From: an uncultured Bifidobacterium sp.
Lineage (GTDB): Bacteria; Actinomycetota; Actinomycetes; S36-B12; UBA5976
DNA: 36,729 bases
Direction of reading: 5' to 3'
Assembly (NCBI GenBank): GCA_964469855.1
Contig: CAYXYW010000004.1
Location: forward strand, 1 to 36,729
Shown here: piece after piece, positions 1 to 28,667 of the stretch
Position numbering within the stretch: position 1 is the stretch's first letter
How the letters are laid out: each line of letters opens with the position of its first letter
The notes under the pieces: model-generated
The model's database searches: none
Told to the model about the DNA's origin: nothing
Seen by the model: the letters and a program-made list of their open reading frames with translations, nothing else
Position numbers and translations under genes: made by a program

Positions 1-555
1 TGCCAAGATAATACCCACCACCGCTAAATGAAAAACTAAATTGCCAACCTCACGCAAATATCCTTTCTCCGCAGCAATAAATTTCTTTTCCTGATCTACT
101 CGAACTCGCCAATTGGCTTTCTTTAATCCCTCACTGACTGAATCAGCGTAAGAATCAAATTGTAACTTTAAATCAAGATTTTCAAATTGAGTCAATCGCT
201 CAAAATTTGCTGGTGCCGTAGGTGGCTGAGCTTTAACAGCGCGATAGTGCTTAAGTGATCTAGGCAAAATACAGCCAACCAGCGAGACAAGCAGTAATAA
301 ATAAACAGCTGAAAACCAAACTGAGCTAAAAACATTGAAGAAGCCAAGTTTGAGCAAGATATTGCCCAGTGTTGGCGAATCCTCTATCCATTGTGATACG
401 CCAAATGCATCTACATTTTGTTGCGGCAATACCGATCCCGGAATTGAAACAATCACTAATAGCAGCAATAGCAGTAGTGCGGTTCGCATGCTGGTCAACT
501 GCCGCCATAAGAAACGTAATGACTCTCTTGGTGTTAATTCAAAAGTTTCACTCAT
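1..555 (-). CDS. resB: Cytochrome c biogenesis protein ResB (system II), 5' part, runs off the window edge
   Basis: Not in ORF track; hand translation from ATG at 555 (overlaps ccdA stop): MSETFELTPRESLRFLWRQLTSMRTALLLLLLLVIVSIPGSVLPQ...FFNVFSSVWFSAVYLLLLVSLVGCILPR...AEKGYLREVGNLVFHLAVVGIILA, typical actinobacterial ResB motifs; follows ccdA. Confidence 0.93.
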   Translation of the reverse strand, partial: MSETFELTPRESLRFLWRQLTSMRTALLLLLLLVIVSIPGSVLPQQNVDAFGVSQWIEDSPTLGNILLKLGFFNVFSSVWFSAVYLLLLVSLVGCILPRSLKHYRAVKAQPPTAPANFERLTQFENLDLKLQFDSYADSVSEGLKKANWRVRVDQEKKFIAAEKGYLREVGNLVFHLAVVGIILA

Positions 556-1262
556 AAAATCACCGTAAAGCCAGCATATTGTTGCTGAAGCCAAATCATA
601 AGTTCATGCCAGATTCCCGTTAATAACAGCACACCAAGCAAGATCAGAAATCCACTGCCAAGCCGGATAAATAATTTCTGTTTGGCGCGCAAGCGCTGCG
701 TAATTGCTATTGATTTATGAGCAAAAAATGACAGCAATAAGAATGGCAATCCCAATCCGACGCCATAACTTATTGATAGTAGTGCCCCTTTAGCGGCTGT
801 TGCTTCAGTTAACGCCAACGTTTGCACCGCTGCCAAGGTAGGTCCAATGCAAGGAGTCCAACCAATCGCAAACACCACGCCAAGCAATATGGGTTGTGCC
901 GAAGAGGCGACCTTGATCGGTAATTTAAATTGCCACTGCGCAAATTGTCCAAAGCCGGCAAAGATTAAGCCAAGTAATATCAACAGCACACCAAATATTC
1001 GATTCAGTATTGATTGATACTGAGTTAAATATGAACCTAATTGACCAAACGCTATGCCATATGAGGCAAAAATTGCAGTGAAGGTCAGAATGAAAATAAG
1101 TGTTGGAAAGATTGGTTTAGTTTTGGTAACAGTGCCACCAAGCACCGCAAGATAACCAGGCAGCAGCGGTAACACGCATGGGCTTAGAAATGAAACTAAT
1201 CCTGCGACGGCCGCAACAGCAATAGCCAGTGGTAAAAAACCACTGACAACAATCTCACCCAT
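552..1262 (-). CDS. ccdA: Cytochrome c biogenesis disulfide transporter CcdA (DsbD family)
   Basis: SFLSPCVLPLLPGYL and GWTPCIGP motifs, about 6 hydrophobic segments. Confidence 0.95.
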   Translation of the reverse strand: MGEIVVSGFLPLAIAVAAVAGLVSFLSPCVLPLLPGYLAVLGGTVTKTKPIFPTLIFILTFTAIFASYGIAFGQLGSYLTQYQSILNRIFGVLLILLGLIFAGFGQFAQWQFKLPIKVASSAQPILLGVVFAIGWTPCIGPTLAAVQTLALTEATAAKGALLSISYGVGLGLPFLLLSFFAHKSIAITQRLRAKQKLFIRLGSGFLILLGVLLLTGIWHELMIWLQQQYAGFTVIL

Positions 1263-1797
1263 TGTTCACTTCATCAACTACTTGCACTAAAAGTGATCTG
1301 GTAACCGCACCAAGAATTCGTGCACTCGGTCGACCAGATTTATCTAACACAATCGTGGTTGGAATTGCGCTCATTGGCAGTGAATCACGAAACACCAACT
1401 GTTTAGAACCATCCGGATCTACTATTGACGGATAAGTGATACCAAAAAATTCTTCAAAAGCACGTGCCGCGGGATCATTGTCGCGAGTATTTATTCCCAA
1501 CATCTGAACTTCTGGATTCTCAATGTTAAAGGCCTTTAATTCTGGTGCTTCTTGTCGGCACGGCGCGCACCAAGATGCCCAAACATTAATTACGACATTT
1601 TGGCCTAGAAAATCAGAAACTGCTAATTCTTCACCAGTTAAAGTTACGCCAGATAGTTCTAACGCGTCACCGCGATCAGCGACTGGTAATACTGTTGTGG
1701 TGCCATCACCTGAAACAAATGCAGTGTTATTACTTCCACTAGTACTACAGCCAGCAAGCAATGCCATAGCGGCAACTACAACAATTAACTTACGCAC
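1255..1797 (-). CDS. TlpA/ResA-family thiol-disulfide oxidoreductase lipoprotein
   Basis: Likely GTG start at 1797 (VRKLIVVVAAMALLAGC, lipobox LAGC); NVWASWCAPCRQE CxxC; cis-Pro loop SAIPTT. Confidence 0.92.
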   Translation of the reverse strand: MRKLIVVVAAMALLAGCSTSGSNNTAFVSGDGTTTVLPVADRGDALELSGVTLTGEELAVSDFLGQNVVINVWASWCAPCRQEAPELKAFNIENPEVQMLGINTRDNDPAARAFEEFFGITYPSIVDPDGSKQLVFRDSLPMSAIPTTIVLDKSGRPSARILGAVTRSLLVQVVDEVNNG

Positions 1798-2428
1798 CAA
1801 CCCCGCCGGTTGATTCTTTATAAAGCGAGGCTGCTGGTTCCAAGTAGGTAATGCTGGCCAACTGGTCATCATGAAATTTAAGTGTAGTGACAGATGCTAA
1901 ATTGCACTCACGGTGTGATGGGTTATGGACGAATCTGTGATTTTGGTAACCAAGTCGAGCTACCCAGATCGGCAATTGGTGACTTACCAAGGCTGCTTCA
2001 TGGCCGAATGCCGTTAACCGGGCAGATTCAACTGCTGTTTGCATCCGAGCGAAGATCTCCCGATATGGCTCTCCCCAACTGGGTCGAAATGGATTCCATA
2101 AATGTCGCCAAGCTGCTGGCTTTCGCAGCACTCCATCTGACAGCGATACTCGCTTGCCTTCGAAAACGTTAGTTGCCTCAAGCAAGTTCGAATCCTGCAA
2201 TATTGGCAAGTTCTTCACGCGACCAATCGGAGTTGCAGTTTGCACTGCTCGCTCCAACGGTGATGAAACTATGTGAGTCAGATCAGATTCCACAAAATAG
2301 TCCGCGACCAGTTCTGCCATAGCCTGACCACGCTCGGAGAGTTTGAAACCAGGGATTCGACCATAAAGAATCTTCTCTGGATTAAACACCTCGCCATGGC
2401 GCACTAAATGAACCAGCGTGGTAACCAT
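1790..2428 (-). CDS. Histidine phosphatase (phosphoglycerate mutase family), Rv0525-like
   Basis: LVRHGEV, SSPLERA and VSHQLPIW motifs; usual position upstream of tlpA-ccdA-resB. Confidence 0.92.
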   Translation of the reverse strand: MVTTLVHLVRHGEVFNPEKILYGRIPGFKLSERGQAMAELVADYFVESDLTHIVSSPLERAVQTATPIGRVKNLPILQDSNLLEATNVFEGKRVSLSDGVLRKPAAWRHLWNPFRPSWGEPYREIFARMQTAVESARLTAFGHEAALVSHQLPIWVARLGYQNHRFVHNPSHRECNLASVTTLKFHDDQLASITYLEPAASLYKESTGGVGA

Positions 2429-3982
2429 TTAGCTTCGCTTACGAGTCAATCGCTTAACTGATGGTCGCCAAACAACTTCACCTTGCTCTACCGCAGCAAG
2501 TCGAAGTTTTTCACCATGCTCAATTAATGCAGCGATAGTTGCTGGTAGCGTCGTTTCTTCCGCCAAAACATCAACAGTTAATCCCATTTCTTGTGCTGCT
2601 TGCGCAGTTTGCTCACCAATACAAGCGATCACCGTAGTGGGGTGTGGTTTGCCAGCGATGCCAACTAAATTGCGAACTGTGCTTGCTGAGCTAAACAGCA
2701 CCGCATCAAAACCGCCGCTCTTTATCGCATCACGAATTGCTGGTGCTGGTGGTGCCGCACGAACCGTTCTAAACGCGGTAATTTCTTCAACTTCCCAACC
2801 CAGCGAAATCATGGTTGCCGAAAGTGATTCCACCGCCACATCAGCTCGCGGAATTAATACTCGATTCATTGGATCTTGAAATTGATCAAACACTGGCCAT
2901 AGATTTGCTAACCCAGCATTTGTGTCATCGGGTGAGATTAAATCAGGATTAATTCCAATCTCTTTCAAAATTGCAACAGTGTCTGCGCCCACCGCACCAA
3001 TTCGAATTCCGGAGAATGCTCTGGCATCAAGGCCATATTCATCCAGTCTTACCTTGATTGCCTTAACCGCGTGCGGGCTGGTGAAAACTAACCATTGATA
3101 TCGGCCAGACACCAAACCATGAACTGCTTTTTCCATCTGTTGTGGTGCCCGTGGTGGCTCAACGCTCAACGTTGGAACTTCAGTGACAGTTGCTCCTGCC
3201 TTTGCCAACAGCGCAGGCACATCAACTGAAAATTCTTTGGTCTTTGGTAATAGCACTTTCCAGCCAAACAAGCTTCGCGTTTCAAACCAAGCATTTCGAT
3301 CAATCTGTCCGGCGGCTTCGGAAATCACCGCATGTGCTGGGCCTTGCAGTTTATGAGCTTTAATCTGTTCAACTGCATCGCCGATTGTCATGCGATAACT
3401 GCGCTGATCTAACGTCATCGCGTTTTGCACTAGCACCATTGGAGTGGATTCAATTCTGCCGGCGGCAACTAAATCAGCAGCAAATCGACCAATCTCATTT
3501 GTTGTACCACGTAGAATCAGTGAAGTTTTATTACCTAAGTAATTTCCCAACTCGTAAGAGTCTTTTGCATCCAATAAGTGAATTGATTCGGTCTTTGCTG
3601 GATCAAACATTGCACCGGCATAAAAACCAACCGCAAAATCAACTGGAACAGTTGGAAATACCTCAAAGTCAATATTTGATTTGTTAACTATCGCCAATTC
3701 TTCATGTAGTGATCCCCGCAAAATACCATCACCAAAAAATACTCGGACGACATCATTTCCCTCTTTTGCTGCAGCAACTGCAGCTTTTGCTAGATCAGCG
3801 CTTTGTTCCCCAGCCACTTGTGCAACTGTTGCTATTGGTGCCACAACTTCAACTAATGATGGATCAACAATTACCGTTTGGGCATCACCAATGGCATCAA
3901 GAGCTGCTTTCGTAAGCACTTTTAGATCGCAGTCTGGCAGCGCGATAAAGGAAATCCGACCAGCGGACTTTGGGGATGTCAT
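2429..3982 (-). CDS. hemD: Uroporphyrinogen-III C-methyltransferase / uroporphyrinogen-III synthase fusion (CobA-HemD) with degenerate motifs
   Basis: C-terminal half matches actinobacterial HemD (WFETRSLFGWKVL, VEPPRAPQQMEKAVHGLVSGRYQW, RTVRAAPP, STVRNLVGIAGKPH); N-terminal tetrapyrrole methylase-like domain is divergent; directly downstream of rex. Confidence 0.88.
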   Translation of the reverse strand: MTSPKSAGRISFIALPDCDLKVLTKAALDAIGDAQTVIVDPSLVEVVAPIATVAQVAGEQSADLAKAAVAAAKEGNDVVRVFFGDGILRGSLHEELAIVNKSNIDFEVFPTVPVDFAVGFYAGAMFDPAKTESIHLLDAKDSYELGNYLGNKTSLILRGTTNEIGRFAADLVAAGRIESTPMVLVQNAMTLDQRSYRMTIGDAVEQIKAHKLQGPAHAVISEAAGQIDRNAWFETRSLFGWKVLLPKTKEFSVDVPALLAKAGATVTEVPTLSVEPPRAPQQMEKAVHGLVSGRYQWLVFTSPHAVKAIKVRLDEYGLDARAFSGIRIGAVGADTVAILKEIGINPDLISPDDTNAGLANLWPVFDQFQDPMNRVLIPRADVAVESLSATMISLGWEVEEITAFRTVRAAPPAPAIRDAIKSGGFDAVLFSSASTVRNLVGIAGKPHPTTVIACIGEQTAQAAQEMGLTVDVLAEETTLPATIAALIEHGEKLRLAAVEQGEVVWRPSVKRLTRKRS

Positions 3983-4662
3983 ATTGCTATTACCTCATTT
4001 GCTTTGGTTTGTTCATGAAATGTCAAAATCTGTAGTTCGCTGGCTAAGTCGATCTGTCTCACATCTACTCCGCTTGGCACGGTGAGCGTGACCGGAGCAA
4101 AAGTCATAATTGAATAAATACCAGCATTAACTAAAGTGTCACAAACACTTTGTGCTGCTGGGGCTGGTGTAGTGATAACAGCAATTTGAATATTATTTTC
4201 TCGAATAAAAGTTGATAGGCCAGCAACATCTTTAATAAAGATTTTTTGTCCTTCTGAAATCTCCACAACTTTGCCAATAATTTCGGGTGCTGAATCAAAC
4301 AACGCCGATATTTTGAAACCACGATTAGTAAAGCCGGCATATTTCGCCAGTGACATACCTAAATTGCCGCAACCAACTATCACAATTGGCCACTGCTTGT
4401 CTACACCTAATGTGGCAGATAGCGCTTGAATCAAAACCGCCACGTCATAACCAACCCCACGAGTGCCATGGCCGCCTAAATGAGATAAATCTTTGCGAAG
4501 TTGTGCGCTCGTTACGTTAACTGCTTCAGCTAACTCTTCGGAGGAAATAACTTCAACCCCACGAGACTTAAACTCAGTCAACGCCCGCAAGTAAATAGGT
4601 AGCCGTTCTACGGTGGCCGCGGGTAATCCGACGGTTTTCCCGGGCGTGCGCTGTTGCGCCAC
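3979..4662 (-). CDS. rex: Redox-sensing transcriptional repressor Rex
   Basis: RLPIYLRAL, SSEELA, QLRKDLS, GTRGVGY and Rossmann VGCGNLG; GTG at 4662 with GGAG SD 5 nt upstream. Confidence 0.96.
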   Translation of the reverse strand: MAQQRTPGKTVGLPAATVERLPIYLRALTEFKSRGVEVISSEELAEAVNVTSAQLRKDLSHLGGHGTRGVGYDVAVLIQALSATLGVDKQWPIVIVGCGNLGMSLAKYAGFTNRGFKISALFDSAPEIIGKVVEISEGQKIFIKDVAGLSTFIRENNIQIAVITTPAPAAQSVCDTLVNAGIYSIMTFAPVTLTVPSGVDVRQIDLASELQILTFHEQTKANEVIAI

Positions 4663-4694
4663 AATGGCTCCTGTTGATCTGGGTTTCAGGGCCA

Positions 4695-4700
4695 ACGGTA
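4695..4700 (-). promoter_or_regulatory. Putative -10 element (TACCGT) for the rex-hemD-ccs operon
   Basis: TANNNT hexamer about 33 nt upstream of the rex GTG; the same hexamer precedes ppx, lysS and ftsH. Confidence 0.45.
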
Positions 4701-4728
4701 ATTAGAAACTAGAAAAAATCAAAATTCC

Positions 4729-4974
4729 TCACAACTTAGGCGGTTGAAGTGCAGAAATTAAGGTTTGCGGCAATATCTGCCAAACCGCAATCTCGCTGCC
4801 ATCTACCAGCACTACTGGGACAAACTCTGCGTGCTGCGCGGCTAACTGAGGATGCTCGGTAATAATCAATTCTTCAAATTTTTCGCCTAATTCGGCACAC
4901 ACGGCGACCACCACTTCGCGGGCGTTATCGCATAAATGGCAGTTGGGTTTAGTGATTAACTGCACCCGCGGCAC
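4729..4974 (-). CDS. Glutaredoxin-like protein (DUF836 type)
   Basis: TKPNCHLCD CxxC and VPVVLVDG; usual position upstream of rex/hem. Confidence 0.88.
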   Translation of the reverse strand: MPRVQLITKPNCHLCDNAREVVVAVCAELGEKFEELIITEHPQLAAQHAEFVPVVLVDGSEIAVWQILPQTLISALQPPKL

Positions 4975-4979
4975 AAGGA

Positions 4980-5078
4980 TTACTTCTTGTTACGTCGCTG
5001 AACACGGGTCTTGCGCAGCAGCTTGCGATGCTTCTTCTTTGCCATTCGCTTGCGGCGCTTTTTAATAACTGATCCCAC
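4980..5078 (-). CDS. 30S ribosomal protein bS22 (AURKAIP1/COX24 domain), 32 aa
   Basis: Not in ORF track; GTG at 5078 gives [40 protein letters not shown] upstream. Confidence 0.96.
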
Positions 5079-5141
5079 GGTTCACCTCTTGGGTTGGACT
5101 GAGTGCCGAATGCTACTAAACCAGGAAACCAGGGGTTGCTG

Positions 5142-5927
5142 CTACCCCAGTTCAGCTGCACGCTGTTTTGCCGCAGCCACCGCCTGAGCCACTAACTCCA
5201 TAAAACCGCCATCGGCGAATACCTGAAGTGCTGCTTCAGTGGTGCCACCTTTTGAAGTCACCCGCTGCCGCAGCGTGGCTGCGGATTCGTTAGTTTCAGC
5301 AATTAATGCAGCAGCACCAGCGATTGTTTCAATAACTGCTGCAGTGGCGTCTGCTTCGGAGATGCCTTGCGCCATTGCAGCAGCAACTAATGCTTCTATT
5401 AGCAAAAACACATAAGCAGGCCCTGAGCCATGAATTGCAGTGAAGCTATCTTGTAGTTTTTCGTCAATAGCGAGCACCGTGCCTGCGGCAGCTAAGAATT
5501 CAGTTGCTCGAGATAAATGAATTGGCTCGGAGTTAGGAAGAACTGAAACCGTGCTAAATCCTTTTCCAACTAATGCTGGTGTATTTGGCATACATCTAAC
5601 TGATACGGCATTTGGCACAAGCGTGGTTAATTTTTCCAGCGTGATGCCTGCTGCAATCGATAAAACTGTTTGAGATTTATTTAGTTTTGGATTTAGTTCC
5701 GCGAGCACCGCAGAAATATCTTGCGGCTTAACGGCAATCACAATTAATTCAGCTGCTGCAATGTCCGAATCATCAGCTTTAGTCACGTCTAACTGATTAA
5801 TTGCTGATTGTGCTTTTGCTTCATCTTTATCAGTTACGGAAATGTTAAGTTGACCATTGGCAGCTTTTGCAGCAGCAATTAACGCGGTGCCCATCGCGCC
5901 TACGCCAATCACAACGACGTTTTTCAC
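5142..5927 (-). CDS. proC: Pyrroline-5-carboxylate reductase
   Basis: IGVGAMG, AVKPQD, RCMPNTP, GSGPAY, VTSKGGTT; GTG at 5927 with GGAG SD. Confidence 0.96.
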   Translation of the reverse strand: MKNVVVIGVGAMGTALIAAAKAANGQLNISVTDKDEAKAQSAINQLDVTKADDSDIAAAELIVIAVKPQDISAVLAELNPKLNKSQTVLSIAAGITLEKLTTLVPNAVSVRCMPNTPALVGKGFSTVSVLPNSEPIHLSRATEFLAAAGTVLAIDEKLQDSFTAIHGSGPAYVFLLIEALVAAAMAQGISEADATAAVIETIAGAAALIAETNESAATLRQRVTSKGGTTEAALQVFADGGFMELVAQAVAAAKQRAAELG

Positions 5928-5938
5928 CTGCGCTCCAA

Positions 5939-6865
5939 TCAACTTAGCGAGTCAATATGGCGAAGCAAAATTCCCTCTCGCAACGCCCACGGACTGATCT
6001 CGATCTCTTCGATATCCAGCAAATCTACCGCGGCCGCAGCAACCATGGCACCAGCAGCCAATTGTGTTGCCCGTGCCTTACTCACACCTGGCAGATTGGT
6101 TCGTTGCTGCACGCTCATTGCAGCAATTTTGGTGGCAATTTGGCTTAGCTTCGCTGCCGGCAAAATTCGCTTAACAAAAGGTCCTGCGGCACTAGGTGCA
6201 GCGCCAGCGATGCGAGCTAACGATCGAAATGTTTTGCTGGTGCCAACAACGTGATCAGCACCCTCTTCAGTTGTGATCTGTTCCATCACTCTTTCAAGTT
6301 GATCGTAAATATATTCATTAAGCAGATTTAGTTGCTTCGCGGTTGGTGGATCGCTTAACTTAAAATCTTTTGTCAACCTTCCAGCGCCAAGTGGCAGTGA
6401 TATTGCCGTATCAGGCATTTCACCACCACCAATGGCTATTTCAAATGAGCCACCACCAATATCAAGATTTAGCAACGTGCCGCTGGACCAGCCAAACCAT
6501 CTCCTGGTTGCCAAAAAGGTGAGCCGTGCTTCATCAGCACCAGAGAGCACAGATATTTGTTGCTTGGTTTTGCTGATCACCTGATCCAAAACTTCTTGAC
6601 CATTTGATGCACCTCTGATCGCGCTAGTGGCAAATGCCAAAATTTCACTACAGCCATTTGATTTAGCTGCTTGAGTTAACTCGGCAATCACGTCAGTTAA
6701 ATGATTTGCCATCTTGTCATCAAAGGCGCCATCGTCGGTTAAGTGTCGGATTAGTCCTAACGGCTCTTTTATTGAGAATGCTGGTAGCGGTGCTGCGCCA
6801 ACAGCCACGTCACACACCAAAAGGTGCACAGTATTGCTTCCTATGTCCAACACGCCCAGCCGCAT
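5939..6865 (-). CDS. ppx: Ppx/GppA-family exopolyphosphatase
   Basis: LDIGSNTVHL, ATSAIR, EARLT, LDIGGGSFE, ALREG motifs. Confidence 0.93.
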   Translation of the reverse strand: MRLGVLDIGSNTVHLLVCDVAVGAAPLPAFSIKEPLGLIRHLTDDGAFDDKMANHLTDVIAELTQAAKSNGCSEILAFATSAIRGASNGQEVLDQVISKTKQQISVLSGADEARLTFLATRRWFGWSSGTLLNLDIGGGSFEIAIGGGEMPDTAISLPLGAGRLTKDFKLSDPPTAKQLNLLNEYIYDQLERVMEQITTEEGADHVVGTSKTFRSLARIAGAAPSAAGPFVKRILPAAKLSQIATKIAAMSVQQRTNLPGVSKARATQLAAGAMVAAAAVDLLDIEEIEISPWALREGILLRHIDSLS

Positions 6866-6899
6866 GAGCAGACGGTACTCCCTGTCTAGGCTAATCCCC

Positions 6900-7679
6900 G
6901 TGAAAGAAACTTCGCTGACCGCGCCGCGCCACTGGGTGGAATTTCAAGACCCAGATGAGCCGTTACAAATTTATCGGATTGACTTAACTTGGCTGACCTC
7001 AAAATGGAATTGTATTTACGGTCGTGGCTGCAAAGGAATTGAAAAGGGCCGACCTAATGATGGTTGCTGTACCCATGGTGCACACTTTTCAGAAAAATCT
7101 GATCATAAAAATGTTAAGAAGTGGGTTGCGAAATTAACTGATGAAGATTGGCAGCACCGAGAAATTGGTATGAAAAAAGGTTGGACTGAAAAAGAAGATG
7201 GTGCCGATAAAACCAAAGTTGTTAACGGTGCTTGCATCTTCTTAAATCGACCTGGCTTTGAAGGTGGCGATGGTTGTGCGTTTCATCGCCTTGCGCTTCG
7301 AATTGGCGAGCAGCCAGCAGATCTAAAACCAGAAGTGTGTTGGCAACTGCCAATTCGGCGCGATTACGAACGACGTAAGTTTGAAGATAAGTCTGAACAA
7401 TTAGTAGTTTTAATTACTGAATACGATCGACGTAGCTGGGGTGAAGGTGGCGTGGAGTTGAATTGGTACTGCTCAAGCAATCCCGAAGCACATAACGCCG
7501 CTGAACCAGTTTATGTCTCGGAGAAATACACCTTAATTAAATTGATGAGCCAAAAGGCATATGACATCCTGGTTGAGCACTGCAAAGCCCATGAAGCAGC
7601 CATTGAGTCGGTGCGAGACAGTAAGGGGCGAAAATTAATTCCGCTTCATCCTGCGACAGCTGTCTGGGAGCGCAAGTAG
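6900..7679 (+). CDS. Conserved Cys-rich protein, probable metal/Fe-S cluster binding (DUF3109/YkgJ-like; syntenic with Rv0495c)
   Basis: GTG at 6900 after TAGGCT; WNCIYGRGC, DGCCTHGAHF, GACIFL, GCAFH, KPEVCWQLP, WYC motifs; divergent from ppx. Confidence 0.75.
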   Translation: MKETSLTAPRHWVEFQDPDEPLQIYRIDLTWLTSKWNCIYGRGCKGIEKGRPNDGCCTHGAHFSEKSDHKNVKKWVAKLTDEDWQHREIGMKKGWTEKEDGADKTKVVNGACIFLNRPGFEGGDGCAFHRLALRIGEQPADLKPEVCWQLPIRRDYERRKFEDKSEQLVVLITEYDRRSWGEGGVELNWYCSSNPEAHNAAEPVYVSEKYTLIKLMSQKAYDILVEHCKAHEAAIESVRDSKGRKLIPLHPATAVWERK

Positions 7680-17191: not shown

Positions 17192-17998
17192 CTAATTGAG
17201 CGCAATATTATCGAGTAGCCGGGTCGATCCCACTCTAACCGCTACCACAAGTCGTCGATTGCCTAGATCTTGACAATTAGCTGGCATTGGCAGAATCTCA
17301 ACATAGTCGATCTGATCTGATGAAATTCCTGCCTTGTCTAGGTTTTCACGAAAACTTGAAACTGGATCAGACTGTAGCGCGCCAACATTTAGTGCTTTGT
17401 TGATTTGAGCCGCTAATTGCAATTCTGTCTCTGAAAGATACTTATTTCTGCTGCTCATTGCTAATCCAGAATCTGTTCGTACCGTTTCAACCGCAACTAT
17501 TTCCAGTCTGGGGAATCGCTCATCGGCCATTTCTCTAATCAAAATTAGTTGTTGTAAATCTTTCACACCAAAAACTGTATGTGTTGGCTCGACCAACTCA
17601 AACAACCGGTTAACAATGGTTAATACGCCATCAAAGTGGCCAGGTCGCATCGCTCCTTCTAACTGATTTCCAAAAGGTGGGCTTTCAAGTTTTGTCATGG
17701 TTGGAAATAGCAATTCGCCGGCCTCCGGCGCCCAAACTAAATCTGCGCCATATTCCACCGCTAACTTCTCATCAGCAGCTAGAGATCTTGGATATTTATT
17801 GAAGTCTTCGGTAGGACCAAATTGCAGTGGATTAACAAAGATAGAAACAACTACCTGACCTTCAGCGCCCGCAATCGTGCGAGCAACTCGAATCAATTCA
17901 CCATGGCCAGTATGTAAGGCGCCCATGGTGGGAACGAAAACTCTGGGTTTTGCACCAAGCGAAGCAGTTAACTGCTCGATGCTGTACACGGTTTTCAA
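17192..17998 (-). CDS. panC: Pantoate--beta-alanine ligase
   Basis: PTMGALHTGH, SIFVNPLQF, RPGHFDGV, GLAMSSRN, RLLDN. Confidence 0.96.
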   Translation of the reverse strand: MKTVYSIEQLTASLGAKPRVFVPTMGALHTGHGELIRVARTIAGAEGQVVVSIFVNPLQFGPTEDFNKYPRSLAADEKLAVEYGADLVWAPEAGELLFPTMTKLESPPFGNQLEGAMRPGHFDGVLTIVNRLFELVEPTHTVFGVKDLQQLILIREMADERFPRLEIVAVETVRTDSGLAMSSRNKYLSETELQLAAQINKALNVGALQSDPVSSFRENLDKAGISSDQIDYVEILPMPANCQDLGNRRLVVAVRVGSTRLLDNIALN

Positions 17999-24255: not shown

Positions 24256-24418
24256 TCTTGCTCCTTATTAATGCGGCTCAAGATACGCCAAAAGTCGAAC
24301 TCGCAGGTAATCCCAAGCGGAAACGGCCAATGGCTAGACTCACCCCCCTACGCACCCCCAGCCAAGCTGGGTGGTCGTCAGGCCCTCGACCAATTTCGTT
24401 GGCCTTCCAAGGAGGAAC

Positions 24419-26695
24419 ATGTTTCGCTCGACCCTGACTGCCGCTGGCACAAGCGATATTGCCATTACCGGCAGCAACCAAACCTTAGTTTTGGTCGTAG
24501 CAGTTATCTCAGCACTTGCGTTAGTTATGGCTTGGGTTTTCCGCCGTGAAGTACTTGCGTTCGGCGAGGGAACTGAAAAAATGCAAGAAATTGCTAAAGC
24601 CGTTCAAGAAGGTGCTGCGGCATATCTTGCTCGACAATTCAAAACACTAGCCCTATTCGTAGTTCTAATTTTTGGTTTGCTTTTTGTGCTACCTGGAACT
24701 GTTGATGTTCGAATCGGACGCTCCATATTCTTCGTACTTGGTGCGTTGTTCTCCGCATTCATTGGCTACTTCGGTATGTCACTTGCTGTTAAAGCAAATG
24801 TTCGTGTTGCCGCAGCCGCCAAAGAAAGTGGTATTGATCGCGCTACTCGCGTTGCTTTCCGAACTGGTGGTGCCGTTGGAATGGCAACTGTTGGTCTTGG
24901 CTTACTCGGTGCTGCTGTTGTGGTTTACCTATACGAAGGTGAAGCAGCGAAAGTGCTTGAAGGTTTCGGTTTTGGTGCCGCAATGGTTGCGATGTTCATG
25001 CGTGTTGGTGGCGGTATCTTCACCAAAGCAGCTGACGTCGGTGCCGACTTAGTTGGAAAAGTTGAGCAAGGTATTCCAGAGGATGATCCTCGTAACGCTG
25101 CCACAATTGCAGACAACGTTGGTGACAACGTTGGTGACTGCGCTGGTATGGCAGCTGATCTATTTGAGTCTTATGCCGTCACCTTGGTGGCAGCATTAAT
25201 TCTTGGCAAGGTTGCCTTCGGTGTTGAAGGTTTGGTTTTCCCGTTAATCATTCCAGCAATTGGTGTAATCACCGCAGTGATAGGCGTATTCATCACCAAG
25301 CCACGCCAGGGTGAGAATGGTTTAAAGGCAATTAACCGTGGCTTTGCTATCTCAGCTGCTATTTCTGCCACGCTTTCCACAATTGCTTCTTATGTTTATC
25401 TTCCAGCAAGCTTCAGTGAGTTCGCTGGAGTTTCCGAAGAAATTACTGCACTTGATGGCGATCCTCGACTAATTGCAACTGTTTCTGTAATTCTTGGTAT
25501 TGCACTTGCCGCAATTATTCTTCGAGTTACTGGTTACTACACCGGAACCGACAAGAAGCCAGTTCAAGATATTGGCAAGACTTCGCTAACCGGCCCAGCA
25601 ACTGTGGTGCTATCTGGTATCGCAATTGGATTGGAGTCTGCAGTTGTCACCGCGGTAATTATTGGTGCAGCAGTTTATGGCGCATTCCTACTTGGTGGAT
25701 CTTCAATTGCACTATCACTATTTGCAATTGCACTTGCTGGAACTGGTTTGCTAACCACTGTTGGTGTTATCGTGGCAATGGATACTTTCGGCCCAGTTAG
25801 CGATAACGCGCAAGGTATCGCTGAAATGTCAGGCGATGTGCATGGTGAAGCAGCTCAGATATTGACTGAGCTAGATGCAGTCGGAAATACCACGAAAGCA
25901 ATCACTAAAGGAATTGCCATCGCAACTGCAGTGCTTGCCGCTACTGCGTTATTTGGTGCTTATCGTGATGCCATCATTCAGGCAGTAGATGAACTGGGTG
26001 CCCAGTTTGATCTGTTAGATGCCTTCAACGTAACTAAACCAAACTCACTATTTGGTCTACTAATTGGTGCATCAGTAGTGTTCTTGTTCTCAGCACTAGC
26101 CATTAATGCGGTATCTCGTGCAGCTGGCGCAGTTGTTTTCGAAGTTCGAAATCAGTTCGCTACCCGACCAGGAATCATGAACGGTACTGAGCGACCAGAG
26201 TATGGTCGTGTGGTTGATATCTGCACCAAAGACTCATTGCGTGAGTTAGTAACGCCAGGACTGTTAGCAGTGCTTGCCCCAATCGCAGTTGGATTTGGGT
26301 TGGGTGTTGGCGCACTTGCTTCTTACTTAGCTGGCGCAATTGGTGCTGGTACCTTGATGGCAGTGTTCCTATCAAATTCTGGTGGCGCTTGGGATAACGC
26401 TAAGAAACTTGTTGAAGATGGCGTGCATGGTGGCAAAGGATCACAGGCACACGCAGCAACAGTTATTGGTGACACTGTTGGCGATCCATTCAAGGACACC
26501 GCTGGGCCTGCAATTAACCCACTGATCAAGGTAATGAACTTGGTTTCAGTATTGATTGCTCCAGTAATTATTTCACTAACTTTGAGTGCTGAGCCAAATA
26601 CAGCACTACGAATGACCATTGCTGGAGTTGCAGTAGCGATCATCGTAGTTTCAATTCTGGTTTCAAAGCGTAAAGAAGTTAGCATCGCTGCTTAA
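24419..26695 (+). CDS. hppA: Membrane-bound H+-translocating pyrophosphatase, K+-independent type
   Basis: ATG at 24419 with AAGGAGG SD; GGGIFTKAADVGADLVGKVE, DNVGDNVGD, GNTTKA (Lys variant), GDTVGDPFKD. Confidence 0.95.
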   Translation: MFRSTLTAAGTSDIAITGSNQTLVLVVAVISALALVMAWVFRREVLAFGEGTEKMQEIAKAVQEGAAAYLARQFKTLALFVVLIFGLLFVLPGTVDVRIGRSIFFVLGALFSAFIGYFGMSLAVKANVRVAAAAKESGIDRATRVAFRTGGAVGMATVGLGLLGAAVVVYLYEGEAAKVLEGFGFGAAMVAMFMRVGGGIFTKAADVGADLVGKVEQGIPEDDPRNAATIADNVGDNVGDCAGMAADLFESYAVTLVAALILGKVAFGVEGLVFPLIIPAIGVITAVIGVFITKPRQGENGLKAINRGFAISAAISATLSTIASYVYLPASFSEFAGVSEEITALDGDPRLIATVSVILGIALAAIILRVTGYYTGTDKKPVQDIGKTSLTGPATVVLSGIAIGLESAVVTAVIIGAAVYGAFLLGGSSIALSLFAIALAGTGLLTTVGVIVAMDTFGPVSDNAQGIAEMSGDVHGEAAQILTELDAVGNTTKAITKGIAIATAVLAATALFGAYRDAIIQAVDELGAQFDLLDAFNVTKPNSLFGLLIGASVVFLFSALAINAVSRAAGAVVFEVRNQFATRPGIMNGTERPEYGRVVDICTKDSLRELVTPGLLAVLAPIAVGFGLGVGALASYLAGAIGAGTLMAVFLSNSGGAWDNAKKLVEDGVHGGKGSQAHAATVIGDTVGDPFKDTAGPAINPLIKVMNLVSVLIAPVIISLTLSAEPNTALRMTIAGVAVAIIVVSILVSKRKEVSIAA

Positions 26696-26705
26696 TTAAG
26701 CACTT

Positions 26706-26745
26706 CAATAAAGGCGATAAGGATTATTCCTTATCGCCTTTATTG
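26706..26745. terminator. Bidirectional terminator hairpin between convergent hppA and copD/ctaG
   Basis: Perfect 18-bp stem CAATAAAGGCGATAAGGA / TCCTTATCGCCTTTATTG with 4-nt loop. Confidence 0.85.
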
Positions 26746-28667
26746 TGTAAGGAACGAAGCATTTGGTTATAAGCTTCACGCTCTTGATCGCCATATATAT
26801 CTGCTTGACGATCCAATCGAGCAGCTTGTTGTCGATCTGATTTCGCCCACTGCACACCAAGCGCAATAAATACTAAAAGCATCGGTAATTCACCAAAACT
26901 CCACGCAATTGATCCAGCCAATTGTTGATCGCCGATTGGATCAGTTAGCCAAATTGGGGCAACTTTGCCGAACCAACCACCGCCAACTAGTGAAGTGCTC
27001 TGCATCAAGATTAAACCAAATACCGCATGTAGCACCATAGACATTAAAACCAAAATTAATTTGAATGGATGCCCAATATTTCGAGGCTGAAAATCAGTTC
27101 CAATAATCAACCAAAAGAATAAATATCCAGATAGCACAAAATGGAGATGCATAATTACATGGCCCAAATGGCTAGACATCATGCTCGTCATAAGTGATGA
27201 AAAATAAACTGCATAAATTGAACCACTATAGATAGTTAGTGCAATGAAAGGATGAGTAATGAGTTTGCTGTAATTACTTTGTAAAACAATCGTTATCCAC
27301 TCACGTGGACCAACTAATTCATGTTGAGCCGGCTTTATTGATCGGAGCGCTAGCGTTATTGGCGCACCTAACACCAACAGAATTGGCACCAACATGCCAA
27401 GTGCCATGTGCTGTGTCATATGAGCACTCATGGCAACTAGCGCATATCTACTTATCTCCGTATTAGTAACAAAAATTCCAACAGCAACTCCAGATAGCCA
27501 CGACAGAGTTCGAAGTTGTGACCAATTGTCACCGCGTTTAATTAAGCGCCTTACCCCAGCCAAATAAAGGAATATCGCGGCTAGGCCGACAACCAAAGTC
27601 AGTGCATCTGCAGTTAATGTGCTAAATGCTGCAAGCCAATTGAGCTCGGGTGGCTCTGGATAGCCAGTAAGTTGCTCAATCAATGTATTTGCTGATTCGG
27701 AAGCTTTGGGAAATGCAGAATTGGCAGCAGCGGAAGCAATGGCTAGGACAGCAATCAACAGAGAAATTTCAAGTCCTAATATTTTTACCGCGGTAGTTGA
27801 TTCTGAAATCAATCTTTTTCTAATCATTTGTGCAATCAAAACGGCAGCAATCGTCAGTATGGACTTCATCATAATGAGTCGACCATATTCTGAGGTCCAG
27901 ATTTGCGATATCTGATTAATTCGCGTCAGCGAATTTGCAACACCAGAAAGAACTACTGTTACGAAAGCGATGCCAGCTATTTTGCCAAACCGAAGTACTG
28001 CGATTTTTCGTAAAATAACTTTAGGTGCTGACAAATGCCGATACAGCGCAATCAATCCGGCTAGCCAAATACTCATACCGAGCACATGAAAAAAGCCAGA
28101 GGTGGTTGCCAGTGCATGTCCGCTAATTCCTGCAGCGTGTGCAGTTAGCGCGGAAAATGTGGCGGCAACTAACGCGATAGCGGCCGCAGCACCAACACCA
28201 TTAATACGGTTAGTAAACCTAAGCGTCACAGCAATAACTAGTGCCGCAACTGAAGTTAGCAGCATAGCTCTTACCACAGTTAAATCCCAGGCATAGGTTA
28301 GAAAAATTTCTGGCGAAAAAAATCTGTTTGGTGATACGCCAAGAATCTTTATTAAAAGCGATTGAGCTGCAACTATTGCAAGTCCAGACCAAATCAGTGA
28401 TGTTGAAATTGCTCGCCGCTTGAACTTTAATGCAACTGGCGAAAGCAGATTCTTAGCTTCTGTTGGCAGGAAGAAGATAATCACGAATAAGTTTGCCAAA
28501 ACCATAATGCCTGCAAAGGCAGTTAAATACTCCGCAACTGGGGAAAGAGTGAAAATTATTGGACCCGCATCTGGAATTCCAGCTGGCGATTGTTGATACC
28601 AACTGCCACCAAAAACTAGGCCCAGTAATAAAACTGCAATTCCAATAAACCAAACTGGAATAATCAA
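26724..28667 (-). CDS. CopD plus CtaG fusion membrane protein (copper transport / cytochrome c oxidase assembly, CtiP/Rv0102-like)
   Basis: CopD part (TAHAAG, HVLGMSIWLAG, SEYGRLIMMK) and Caa3_CtaG part (SAHMTQHMALGM, LGAPITLAL, DQQLAGSIAWSFGE). Confidence 0.88.
   Translation of the reverse strand: MIIPVWFIGIAVLLLGLVFGGSWYQQSPAGIPDAGPIIFTLSPVAEYLTAFAGIMVLANLFVIIFFLPTEAKNLLSPVALKFKRRAISTSLIWSGLAIVAAQSLLIKILGVSPNRFFSPEIFLTYAWDLTVVRAMLLTSVAALVIAVTLRFTNRINGVGAAAAIALVAATFSALTAHAAGISGHALATTSGFFHVLGMSIWLAGLIALYRHLSAPKVILRKIAVLRFGKIAGIAFVTVVLSGVANSLTRINQISQIWTSEYGRLIMMKSILTIAAVLIAQMIRKRLISESTTAVKILGLEISLLIAVLAIASAAANSAFPKASESANTLIEQLTGYPEPPELNWLAAFSTLTADALTLVVGLAAIFLYLAGVRRLIKRGDNWSQLRTLSWLSGVAVGIFVTNTEISRYALVAMSAHMTQHMALGMLVPILLVLGAPITLALRSIKPAQHELVGPREWITIVLQSNYSKLITHPFIALTIYSGSIYAVYFSSLMTSMMSSHLGHVIMHLHFVLSGYLFFWLIIGTDFQPRNIGHPFKLILVLMSMVLHAVFGLILMQSTSLVGGGWFGKVAPIWLTDPIGDQQLAGSIAWSFGELPMLLVFIALGVQWAKSDRQQAARLDRQADIYGDQEREAYNQMLRSLHNKGDKE

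Follow-up and report, generated by a model that had tools for sequence, protein, structure and literature searches.

The window analysed here is a stretch of 36,729 nucleotides (contig CAYXYW010000004.1, positions 1 to 36,729; assembly GCA_964469855.1) from an uncultured Bifidobacterium sp. that GTDB places in the actinobacterial lineage S36-B12; UBA5976. On its minus strand, an open and intact open reading frame (ORF) at 2429-3982 encodes a protein of 517 residues that fuses a methyltransferase-like half to a HemD-like half. This ORF is the positional ortholog of actinobacterial hemD, left behind in a Nanopelagicales-type genome after hemA, hemC, hemB and hemL had been removed. Because no gene was found in this lineage for making the substrate or using the product of uroporphyrinogen III synthase (UroS), and because a conserved tyrosine is replaced by Phe404 and the S-adenosylmethionine (SAM) loop is destroyed, the fusion of the window's genus is most likely no longer an enzyme of tetrapyrrole synthesis. 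The explanation that accounts best for the data overall, and to which we attach about even confidence, is a hemD ortholog that is kept as a pseudoenzyme in a heme auxotroph and for which a tetrapyrrole-binding role is proposed.

The orthology follows from gene order. A locus scan of species-representative genomes, started from a 13-sequence alignment, in which one of two search patterns contained AYRT and gene order was read by tblastn, returned 80 loci. In Streptomyces, Microbispora, Aeromicrobium, Knoellia, Phycicoccus, Actinomadura and other records the order was glutaredoxin-like gene, Rex, HemA, HemC, fusion, HemB, a gap, HemL, histidine-phosphatase-family gene (HisPhos), ResA and CcdA, so that the HisPhos gene of these relatives sits after hemL. 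The window reads glutaredoxin-like gene, Rex, fusion, HisPhos, ResA, CcdA, ResB, i.e., the order of the relatives minus hemA, hemC, hemB and hemL, and its ORF therefore occupies the place of hemD. The closest of the 80 loci belongs to a 'Candidatus Nanopelagicales bacterium' (95% identity). In Streptomyces, hemD is known from a rex-hemACD(B) operon (PMC5355995). Actinobacterial hemD (Streptomyces hemD; mycobacterial Rv0511 and MSMEG_0954, annotated as 'uroporphyrinogen III methyltransferase/synthase') has the two-domain architecture and the basic C-terminal tail in common with the window protein, at 42-49% identity overall, and is flanked likewise by rex and the glutaredoxin-like gene upstream and by HisPhos-ResA-CcdA-ResB downstream. 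The window differs in lacking hemA, hemC, hemB and hemL at the locus, and these were not found in the genomes of near-complete relatives either (counts below). Both domains, the tail and the slot between the glutaredoxin-like gene with Rex and the HisPhos and cytochrome c maturation genes thus identify the window protein as a member of this orthogroup, and the fusion tree groups it with the other fusions of its family. Phycicoccus and Knoellia genomes have no HEM4 match other than the fusion, which must therefore be the working UroS there.

As the window's genome is 74% complete, the absence of the pathway was judged on relatives. Within a family sample of 61 genomes, 27 of them near-complete, HemC and HemB were each matched in 6/61 genomes and in 1/27 of the near-complete ones. 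An artefact of an incomplete genome was considered as the cause of the orphan state and rejected, as both proteins were also not found in 26/27 near-complete family genomes. The sequence-only reading of the window had described the partner enzymes as missing from the locus, and the same is now found genome-wide. In the window's genome and four near-complete relatives, ferrochelatase, uroporphyrinogen decarboxylase (URO-D, HemE), ChdC and the siroheme-binding NIR_SIR domain were each matched in 0/5, and the only other TP_methylase match was one open frame of ~284-315 residues per genome, which we take to be RsmI. A UroS would be expected in a genome that supplies hydroxymethylbilane through HemB and HemC and uses uroporphyrinogen III, and neither capacity was found in the window's lineage. 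This loss is in line with the heme auxotrophy that has been published for the acI lineage, in which the 'middle part' of the pathway is reported to be completely lacking, in a text that does not mention hemD (bioRxiv 10.1101/2021.01.11.426183). A literature search for joint mention of hemD with Nanopelagicales, Planktophila, Nanopelagicus or the acI lineage found none among the top-ranked matches. The window also encodes, at 26724-28667 on the minus strand, a 647-residue CopD + Caa3_CtaG fusion (cytochrome oxidase assembly) in this lineage without heme synthesis.

Despite the loss of the pathway the gene is retained. In what follows genomes (G), fetched loci (L), families (f) and genera (g) carry running numbers, the window's genus being g1. 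A fusion was matched in 59/61 genomes of the family sample and in 27/27 near-complete ones, with no internal stops; these genomes differ by up to ~60% in sequence. Among 101 genomes sampled across the order, 95 have the fusion and 61 have HemC, and cross-tabulation shows that 37/40 HemC-negative genomes keep it; stripped loci were seen in f1, in f7 and in some members of f10. HemC was matched in 149/161 genomes sampled across the class (a count that includes two unpublished genomes, G172 and G179, used only there). The 12 class genomes without HemC gave HemB in 0/12 and ferrochelatase in 1/12, and among the families without HemC, f16 and f19 have kept the fusion. In family f4, two HemC-positive genomes carry a fusion with one internal TAA (G096:C80:8172-9722) or in two overlapping frames (G100:C11:447613-449161), which may be broken copies or assembly errors.

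The retained gene is under purifying selection as strong as in heme producers. Across seven loci of the window's genus, where synonymous divergence (dS) of 1.3-2.5 is near saturation and the values are rough, the ratio of nonsynonymous to synonymous rates (dN/dS) was 0.059 for the whole fusion; its methyltransferase-like and HemD-like halves had 0.089 and 0.032, respectively, and its tail 0.109, next to 0.061 for Rex, 0.089 for HisPhos, 0.145 for CcdA and 0.135 for ProC. Prototroph clades gave 0.042 (Streptomyces), 0.074 (Streptosporangiaceae) and 0.122 (Aeromicrobium) for the HemD-like half and 0.185-0.356 for the methyltransferase-like half. The ratio in the window's genus is thus no higher than in heme-making clades. 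A value near 1 had been named beforehand as the mark of simple decay, and the gene is not decaying.

Conservation of single positions points in the same direction. Of 172 columns with at least 95% conservation across 66 hemC-adjacent fusions, 142 fall in the HemD-like half, and the window protein keeps 115/142 of these as well as 16/26 in the methyltransferase-like half. It has 38 changed conserved positions, 28 of which are identical across all seven genus members. Other pathway-less lineages keep 125-137/142 (f7 rows without HemC 131-136, f10 135-136, f16 137, f19 125). Members of the UroS family are otherwise noted to show 'very little alignment' with one another (PMC7242693, section 7). 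Conservation of the HemD-like half that is odd for the UroS family and persists without the pathway is our main argument for a second function of the fusion.

The fold of the protein is preserved while its motifs are not. Pfam assigned TP_methylase (PF00590) to residues 10-203 with 61.1 bits and HEM4 (PF02602) to residues 257-483 with 177.7 bits against a cut-off of 27.5. The AlphaFold2 model, built from a 34-sequence alignment, reached a mean predicted local distance difference test (pLDDT) of 88.5 and a predicted template modelling score (pTM) of 0.75. In Foldseek, the methyltransferase-like half (residues 1-230, 3293-3982) matched CysG, the uroporphyrinogen III methyltransferase (SUMT) 1s4d, NirE and CbiF, with target template modelling (TM) scores of 0.70-0.81 for the single-domain ones, and the HemD-like half (residues 231-490, 2513-3292) matched uroporphyrinogen III synthases including human UroS 1jr2 (target TM 0.70); a search of the ESM Atlas with the latter half returned HemD clusters only. 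The two-lobed UroS fold with its HEM4 domain and the class III methyltransferase fold of SUMT are accordingly both present. The basic tail (residues 491-517, 2432-2512, ending in WRPSVKRLTRKRS) is common to actinobacterial fusions and, in the alignment, missing from CobA-HemD fusions outside the group.

All five motif changes that had been read from the sequence were found in place. GAGPGD, the SAM loop of the relatives, is ALPDCD in the window (residues 14-19, 3926-3943), a reading common to all 8 sequences of the genus that have an N-terminus (L001-L007, L019), and GDP is GDG (residues 84-86, 3725-3733), so that the SAM-binding loop of a SUMT (GxGPGD, GDP) is lost. In the HemD-like half FTSxNAV reads FTSPHAV (N304H; residues 300-306, 3065-3085), IGPxT reads IGEQT (P457E; residues 455-459, 2606-2620) and AYRT reads AFRT (residues 403-406, 2765-2776), where Phe404 (codon TTT, 2771-2773) replaces the tyrosine that is conserved in UroS and aligns with the tyrosine of Pseudomonas HemD 4es6. 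ALPDCD, GDG, PT[VI]P in place of PGVS, SPHAV and IGEQT are limited to the window's genus and fixed there. The stem of this genus in the fusion tree is 1.75 changes per site long and is followed by short tips, a pattern that we read as a burst of change and then stasis. The altered positions include precisely those linked to catalysis or to cofactor binding. Lost motifs, a kept fold and a dN/dS well below 1 are the marks of a pseudoenzyme and are all found here; the loss of activity itself we infer.

The tyrosine shows a distinct pattern across relatives. A fusion tree was built from 114 of the 120 extracted fusions, leaving out L008, L020, L026, L040 and L085 (<480 residues) and the frame-shifted L092. 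It requires between 2 (well-supported branches only) and 4 changes between the hemC-adjacent and the stripped state, and at least 5 changes from Tyr to Phe, all of them within stripped lineages. In the tree set, stripped loci carry Phe in 22/47 and Tyr in 25/47 cases, and hemC- or hemB-adjacent loci carry Tyr in 67 and Phe in 0. As an independent sample, a single genome was taken from each family of the class and the region beside its HemC match was fetched. A contig end truncated one of the 36 regions, and three others (L131, L155, L164) had no fusion beside hemC; Tyr was present in 32/32 of the remaining fusions. All 17 fusions fetched from the family sample, covering 5/8 sampled genera, carry Phe. 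In the tree, named relatives placed with genera g4 and g8 carry Tyr, and the change is therefore recurrent rather than one old event.

Some relatives in which the fusion is uncoupled from hemC make heme, and these have a separate HemD. In genus g8 of the same family a heme operon (hemE-chdC-ferrochelatase-hemA-hemC-stand-alone hemD-hemB-hemL) is present, and the stripped Rex-fusion-HisPhos-CcdA locus sits elsewhere in the genome. Likewise, G020, G061 and G065 have hemA-hemC-stand-alone hemD away from the fusion. The stand-alone HemD proteins carry Tyr in 5/5 cases, and the fusion that shares the g8 genome G008 with one of them carries Phe. Separate stand-alone HemD proteins with Tyr in heme makers, a change to Phe only where the fusion is uncoupled from hemC, selection and the loss of the partner enzymes fit a role other than uroporphyrinogen III synthesis, and we consider it probable that the fusion is retained for such a role. 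The compact operon in this order was seen in G008 (L014, G008:C35:1-7835) and G020; G061 and G065 also have their heme genes in a group, but chdC gave no match there (further loci with stand-alone hemD: L101, L099 and L100). The stand-alone hemD cluster of heme-making relatives may have been re-acquired.

These patterns bear on the sequence-only reading. It had asked whether the substitutions track the loss of hem genes, which is not simply so, since f7, f10, f16 and f19 are pathway-less and have intact motifs. For the Tyr-to-Phe change a part of the idea survives: it occurred at least five times and only where the fusion is uncoupled from hemC, but pathway-less lineages with Tyr exist. As to whether Phe is common in heme prototrophs, the hemC-adjacent fusions all have Tyr, and the heme maker G008 has a fusion with Phe in addition to a stand-alone HemD with Tyr.

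For the methyltransferase-like half, decay was seen well beyond the auxotrophs. With the SUMT model TIGR01469 (NCBIfam, cut-off 185 bits) the window protein scored 67.9, compared with 300.9 for P0230, a CobA/HemD fusion from outside Actinomycetia, 293.6 for L141 (family f25), 173.4 for Aeromicrobium, 153.3 for Knoellia and 129.0 for Streptomyces; L159, a fusion beside hemC and hemB, gave no match up to E 1e-25. As the scores are graded and low in heme producers too, decay of this half alone is no mark of an auxotroph. When aligned to CobA 1s4d, the window protein has Ser91 where CobA has the Arg of FGRGGEE, and DPA where it has the THR segment, so both segments of a SUMT are missing from the window protein; work on NirE reportedly places catalytic Arg and Glu residues in these segments. 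P0230-type fusions and L141 share the domain order and folds of the window protein, but they pass the SUMT model and carry GKxxxxH...Q..IN and GGDPFVFGRGGEE, which the window protein lacks, and the P0230-type fusions have no basic tail. L141 (G164:C4, ORF 1057-2697, beside hemC) has an N-terminal half that passes the SUMT model and reads RLKGGDPFVFG, and is probably, by its sequence, a true bifunctional enzyme in the same orthologous slot. L159 (G184:C1, ORF 1223-2773, hemB also matched) and L147 (G170:C16) are hemC-adjacent fusions with a SAM loop as degenerate as that of the window (FTDPDV and NTDPGP) in which Tyr is kept. The best NCBIfam UroS model, NF004593, gave the window protein 80.6 bits against a cut-off of 275, and since the working UroS fusions of prototrophs (110-131) also stay below it, these models are too narrow to separate the two.

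The degenerate methyltransferase-like half is predicted to form a homodimer. Two copies of residues 1-235 gave an interface score (ipSAE) of 0.77 against 0.00 for the best of three controls, with at least 81% of contacts agreeing between runs and a partner pLDDT of at least 81. The score mark used was reached by 20/30 proteins solved as pairs of one and the same chain and by 1/23 solved as single chains. Homodimers of class III methyltransferases have already been solved.

Taken as a mechanism, the fusion would be kept under strong purifying selection as a pseudoenzyme with a pathway-independent function that is general to the actinobacterial fusion. Its degenerate methyltransferase-like half would serve as a homodimerisation scaffold, and the HemD-like cleft would bind a carboxylated tetrapyrrole, e.g., imported heme or porphyrin, which the fusion could then buffer, sense or pass on. 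Binding is proposed on account of the Ser/Thr-rich helix starts (FTSPHAV, FSSASTVRNL) and the aromatic residue at 404, which are kept, and of the precedent of NnaR. In Streptomyces and mycobacteria, NnaR keeps a domain of HemD fold without HemD activity, much as is proposed here, and its authors consider that this domain may bind heme-like molecules (PMC6277429). NnaR differs in joining the HemD domain to the DNA-binding output of a response regulator, while the only Pfam matches of the window protein are TP_methylase and HEM4. As a specific mechanism, tetrapyrrole binding is possible but doubtful. The sequence-only reading had suggested a non-enzymatic role of this kind, and retention, selection and partner loss fit that suggestion, its heme- or tetrapyrrole-binding part being an inference as before. 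A wider proposal, to which we give somewhat less than even weight, is that the actinobacterial 'HemD' fusion has a second function, independent of heme synthesis and of enough use to outlast genome streamlining in heme auxotrophs of the Nanopelagicales type and in other pathway-less lineages, that the window's genus would hold it as a pure pseudoenzyme, and that the change from Tyr to Phe would mark the catalytic residue of UroS in vivo.

Several observations weigh against reading the fusion as a retained pseudoenzyme, and the near-saturated dS given above is one of them. According to a review, UroS has no active-site residue that is established as essential, and the tyrosine, proposed to assist in removing the hydroxyl of hydroxymethylbilane, is only a possible one (PMC7242693, section 7), and therefore Phe404 alone is no proof of inactivity. 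The 80 loci were found in part through the search pattern containing AYRT, and the unbiased check on Tyr consists of the 32 independent loci. The pathway-less families f7, f10, f16 and f19 keep Tyr (AYRT), GPGD, GDP and IGPxT, and the retained function could be an enzymatic one that uses these residues. The predicted homodimer may reflect solved structures of its family rather than speak for the window copy. Finally, family f36, which lacks HemB and HemC, has no HEM4 protein (0/2), yet keeps ResB and a HisPhos-ResA-CcdA-ResB cluster; five complete genomes of 1.4-1.5 Mb from its genus g64 (including G175 and G241; loci L128 and L129) gave Rex in 0/5. Among the pathway-less lineages seen, f36 alone has lost the fusion as well, and it shows that the function of the fusion is dispensable and not required for cytochrome c maturation. 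The idea that the fusion feeds into cytochrome c maturation, raised with the original reading, is weakened by the same family, as is any requirement of the fusion for the HisPhos gene.

Among the alternatives, a role outside tetrapyrrole chemistry survives best, although we regard it as unlikely. The fusion would then be a protein scaffold or regulator, or would associate with nucleic acid or the ribosome through its basic tail. The conservation of the HemD-like half, where 142 columns reach 95% or more across the 66 sequences, goes far beyond what is stated for UroS enzymes (PMC7242693, section 7) and fits interaction surfaces. The predicted homodimer would support a scaffold, and the tail, specific to actinobacterial fusions, is itself under selection (0.109). 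No partner was identified. Rex was examined as an obligate partner and rejected, since the fusion is present in G118, G127, G145 and G158 although Rex gave no match there, and f36 has retained the HisPhos and cytochrome c maturation genes in spite of having lost the fusion. RsmI uses the class III methyltransferase fold to methylate rRNA, but RNA methylation is improbable for the window protein because the SAM loop is lost in its genus.

Clearly less probable is that the fusion is still an enzyme, a UroS-type or related isomerase or cyclase that tolerates Phe404 and works on an imported precursor or in an unrecognised pathway, with the methyltransferase-like half as an accessory. The 115 prototroph-invariant columns kept in the HemD-like half, purifying selection as strong as in prototrophs, other pathway-less lineages in which all motifs including Tyr and the SAM loop are intact, and the lack of any known essential UroS residue (PMC7242693, section 7) are all compatible with catalysis. 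What speaks against it is the genomic setting, in which HemB and HemC went unmatched in 26/27 near-complete genomes and the consumers of uroporphyrinogen III in 5/5, together with the separate HemD of heme-making relatives and the repeated change to Phe, at least five times and only away from hemC. Hydroxymethylbilane is chemically unstable, and its uptake from outside is unlikely for this reason. It is extremely improbable that the gene is a disappearing relic whose position between rex and the ccs genes alone preserves it, through operon polarity and translational coupling. Its ATGA overlap with the stop of rex, the TAA that runs directly into the ATG of the following gene, the burst of change on the genus stem and the loss in f36 would suit this reading. 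Against it stand dN/dS values of 0.03-0.09 across the genus, an open frame in 59/61 family genomes at up to ~60% sequence difference, retention in several lineages after separate strippings, and the 115/142 invariant residues, which would not be kept in a spacer.

Read as a retained pseudoenzyme form of the actinobacterial CobA-like/HemD fusion, the window protein bears on heme auxotrophy and on research into tetrapyrrole enzymes alike. The acI lineage (Nanopelagicales) is described in the literature as being among the most abundant groups of freshwater bacterioplankton. One gene from the missing middle part of its pathway survives in the window's Nanopelagicales-type genome and in nearly every relative searched, under selection as strong as in heme producers. 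Should the second role be true, for instance in handling imported heme or porphyrin, it would supply a missing piece in the use of scavenged heme by auxotrophs, and hemD of other Actinomycetia would do more than its textbook chemistry. The distribution of Tyr and Phe provides evolutionary evidence on the unsettled catalytic residue of UroS.

The genes around the fusion lie on the same strand. The start of the fusion and the stop of rex, which encodes the redox-sensing repressor (3979-4695, minus strand), overlap as ATGA at 3979-3982; the ORF is thus intact, full length and coupled to rex, as had been read from the sequence. Upstream of rex follows the glutaredoxin-like gene (DUF836, 4729-4974, minus strand), a conserved neighbour in the relatives' loci. 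On the 3' side, the TAA of the fusion is immediately followed by the ATG of the HisPhos gene (1790-2428, minus strand), and the cytochrome c maturation genes complete the locus (1-1872, minus strand): a ResA-like thioredoxin gene (1255-1872), CcdA (552-1262) and ResB (1-594, cut by the window end). In a DNA contig of run X1 (depth 26), position 507 is joined to 2067, omitting 1559 bases that comprise the 5' part of ccdA, the resA-like gene and a portion of the phosphatase gene; only 32 letters lie on the shorter side of this junction, and the contig may derive from another organism.

With up to 3 mismatches to the Rex operator consensus TTGTGAANNNNTTCACAA, taken from the Streptomyces study (PMC5355995), no site was found near rex, and the single match in the window lies at a distance (17334-17351), compared with 4.1 expected by chance. 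hppA is described there as a Rex target in S. avermitilis (PMC5355995). The H+-pyrophosphatase gene of the window (24371-26695, plus strand) has no Rex operator-like site nearby. No Rfam family was matched within the window. A 321-residue ORF at 6714-7679 (plus strand), without a Pfam or NCBIfam match, overlaps with its start the 5' end of a ppx/gppA ORF on the opposite strand (5939-6865). Contigs of the one metatranscriptome used (X20, a small one) cover only 4289-5077, i.e., the 5' part of rex, the glutaredoxin-like gene and bS22, and leave the fusion uncovered, which is no evidence either way. The last of these, a 32-codon ORF with a GTG start between the glutaredoxin-like gene and proC (4980-5078, minus strand), encodes ribosomal protein bS22 (62.3 bits with NCBIfam NF047430, whose cut-off is 34), and this ORF accounts for a spike in depth at 5001-5200 that was seen in all four runs.

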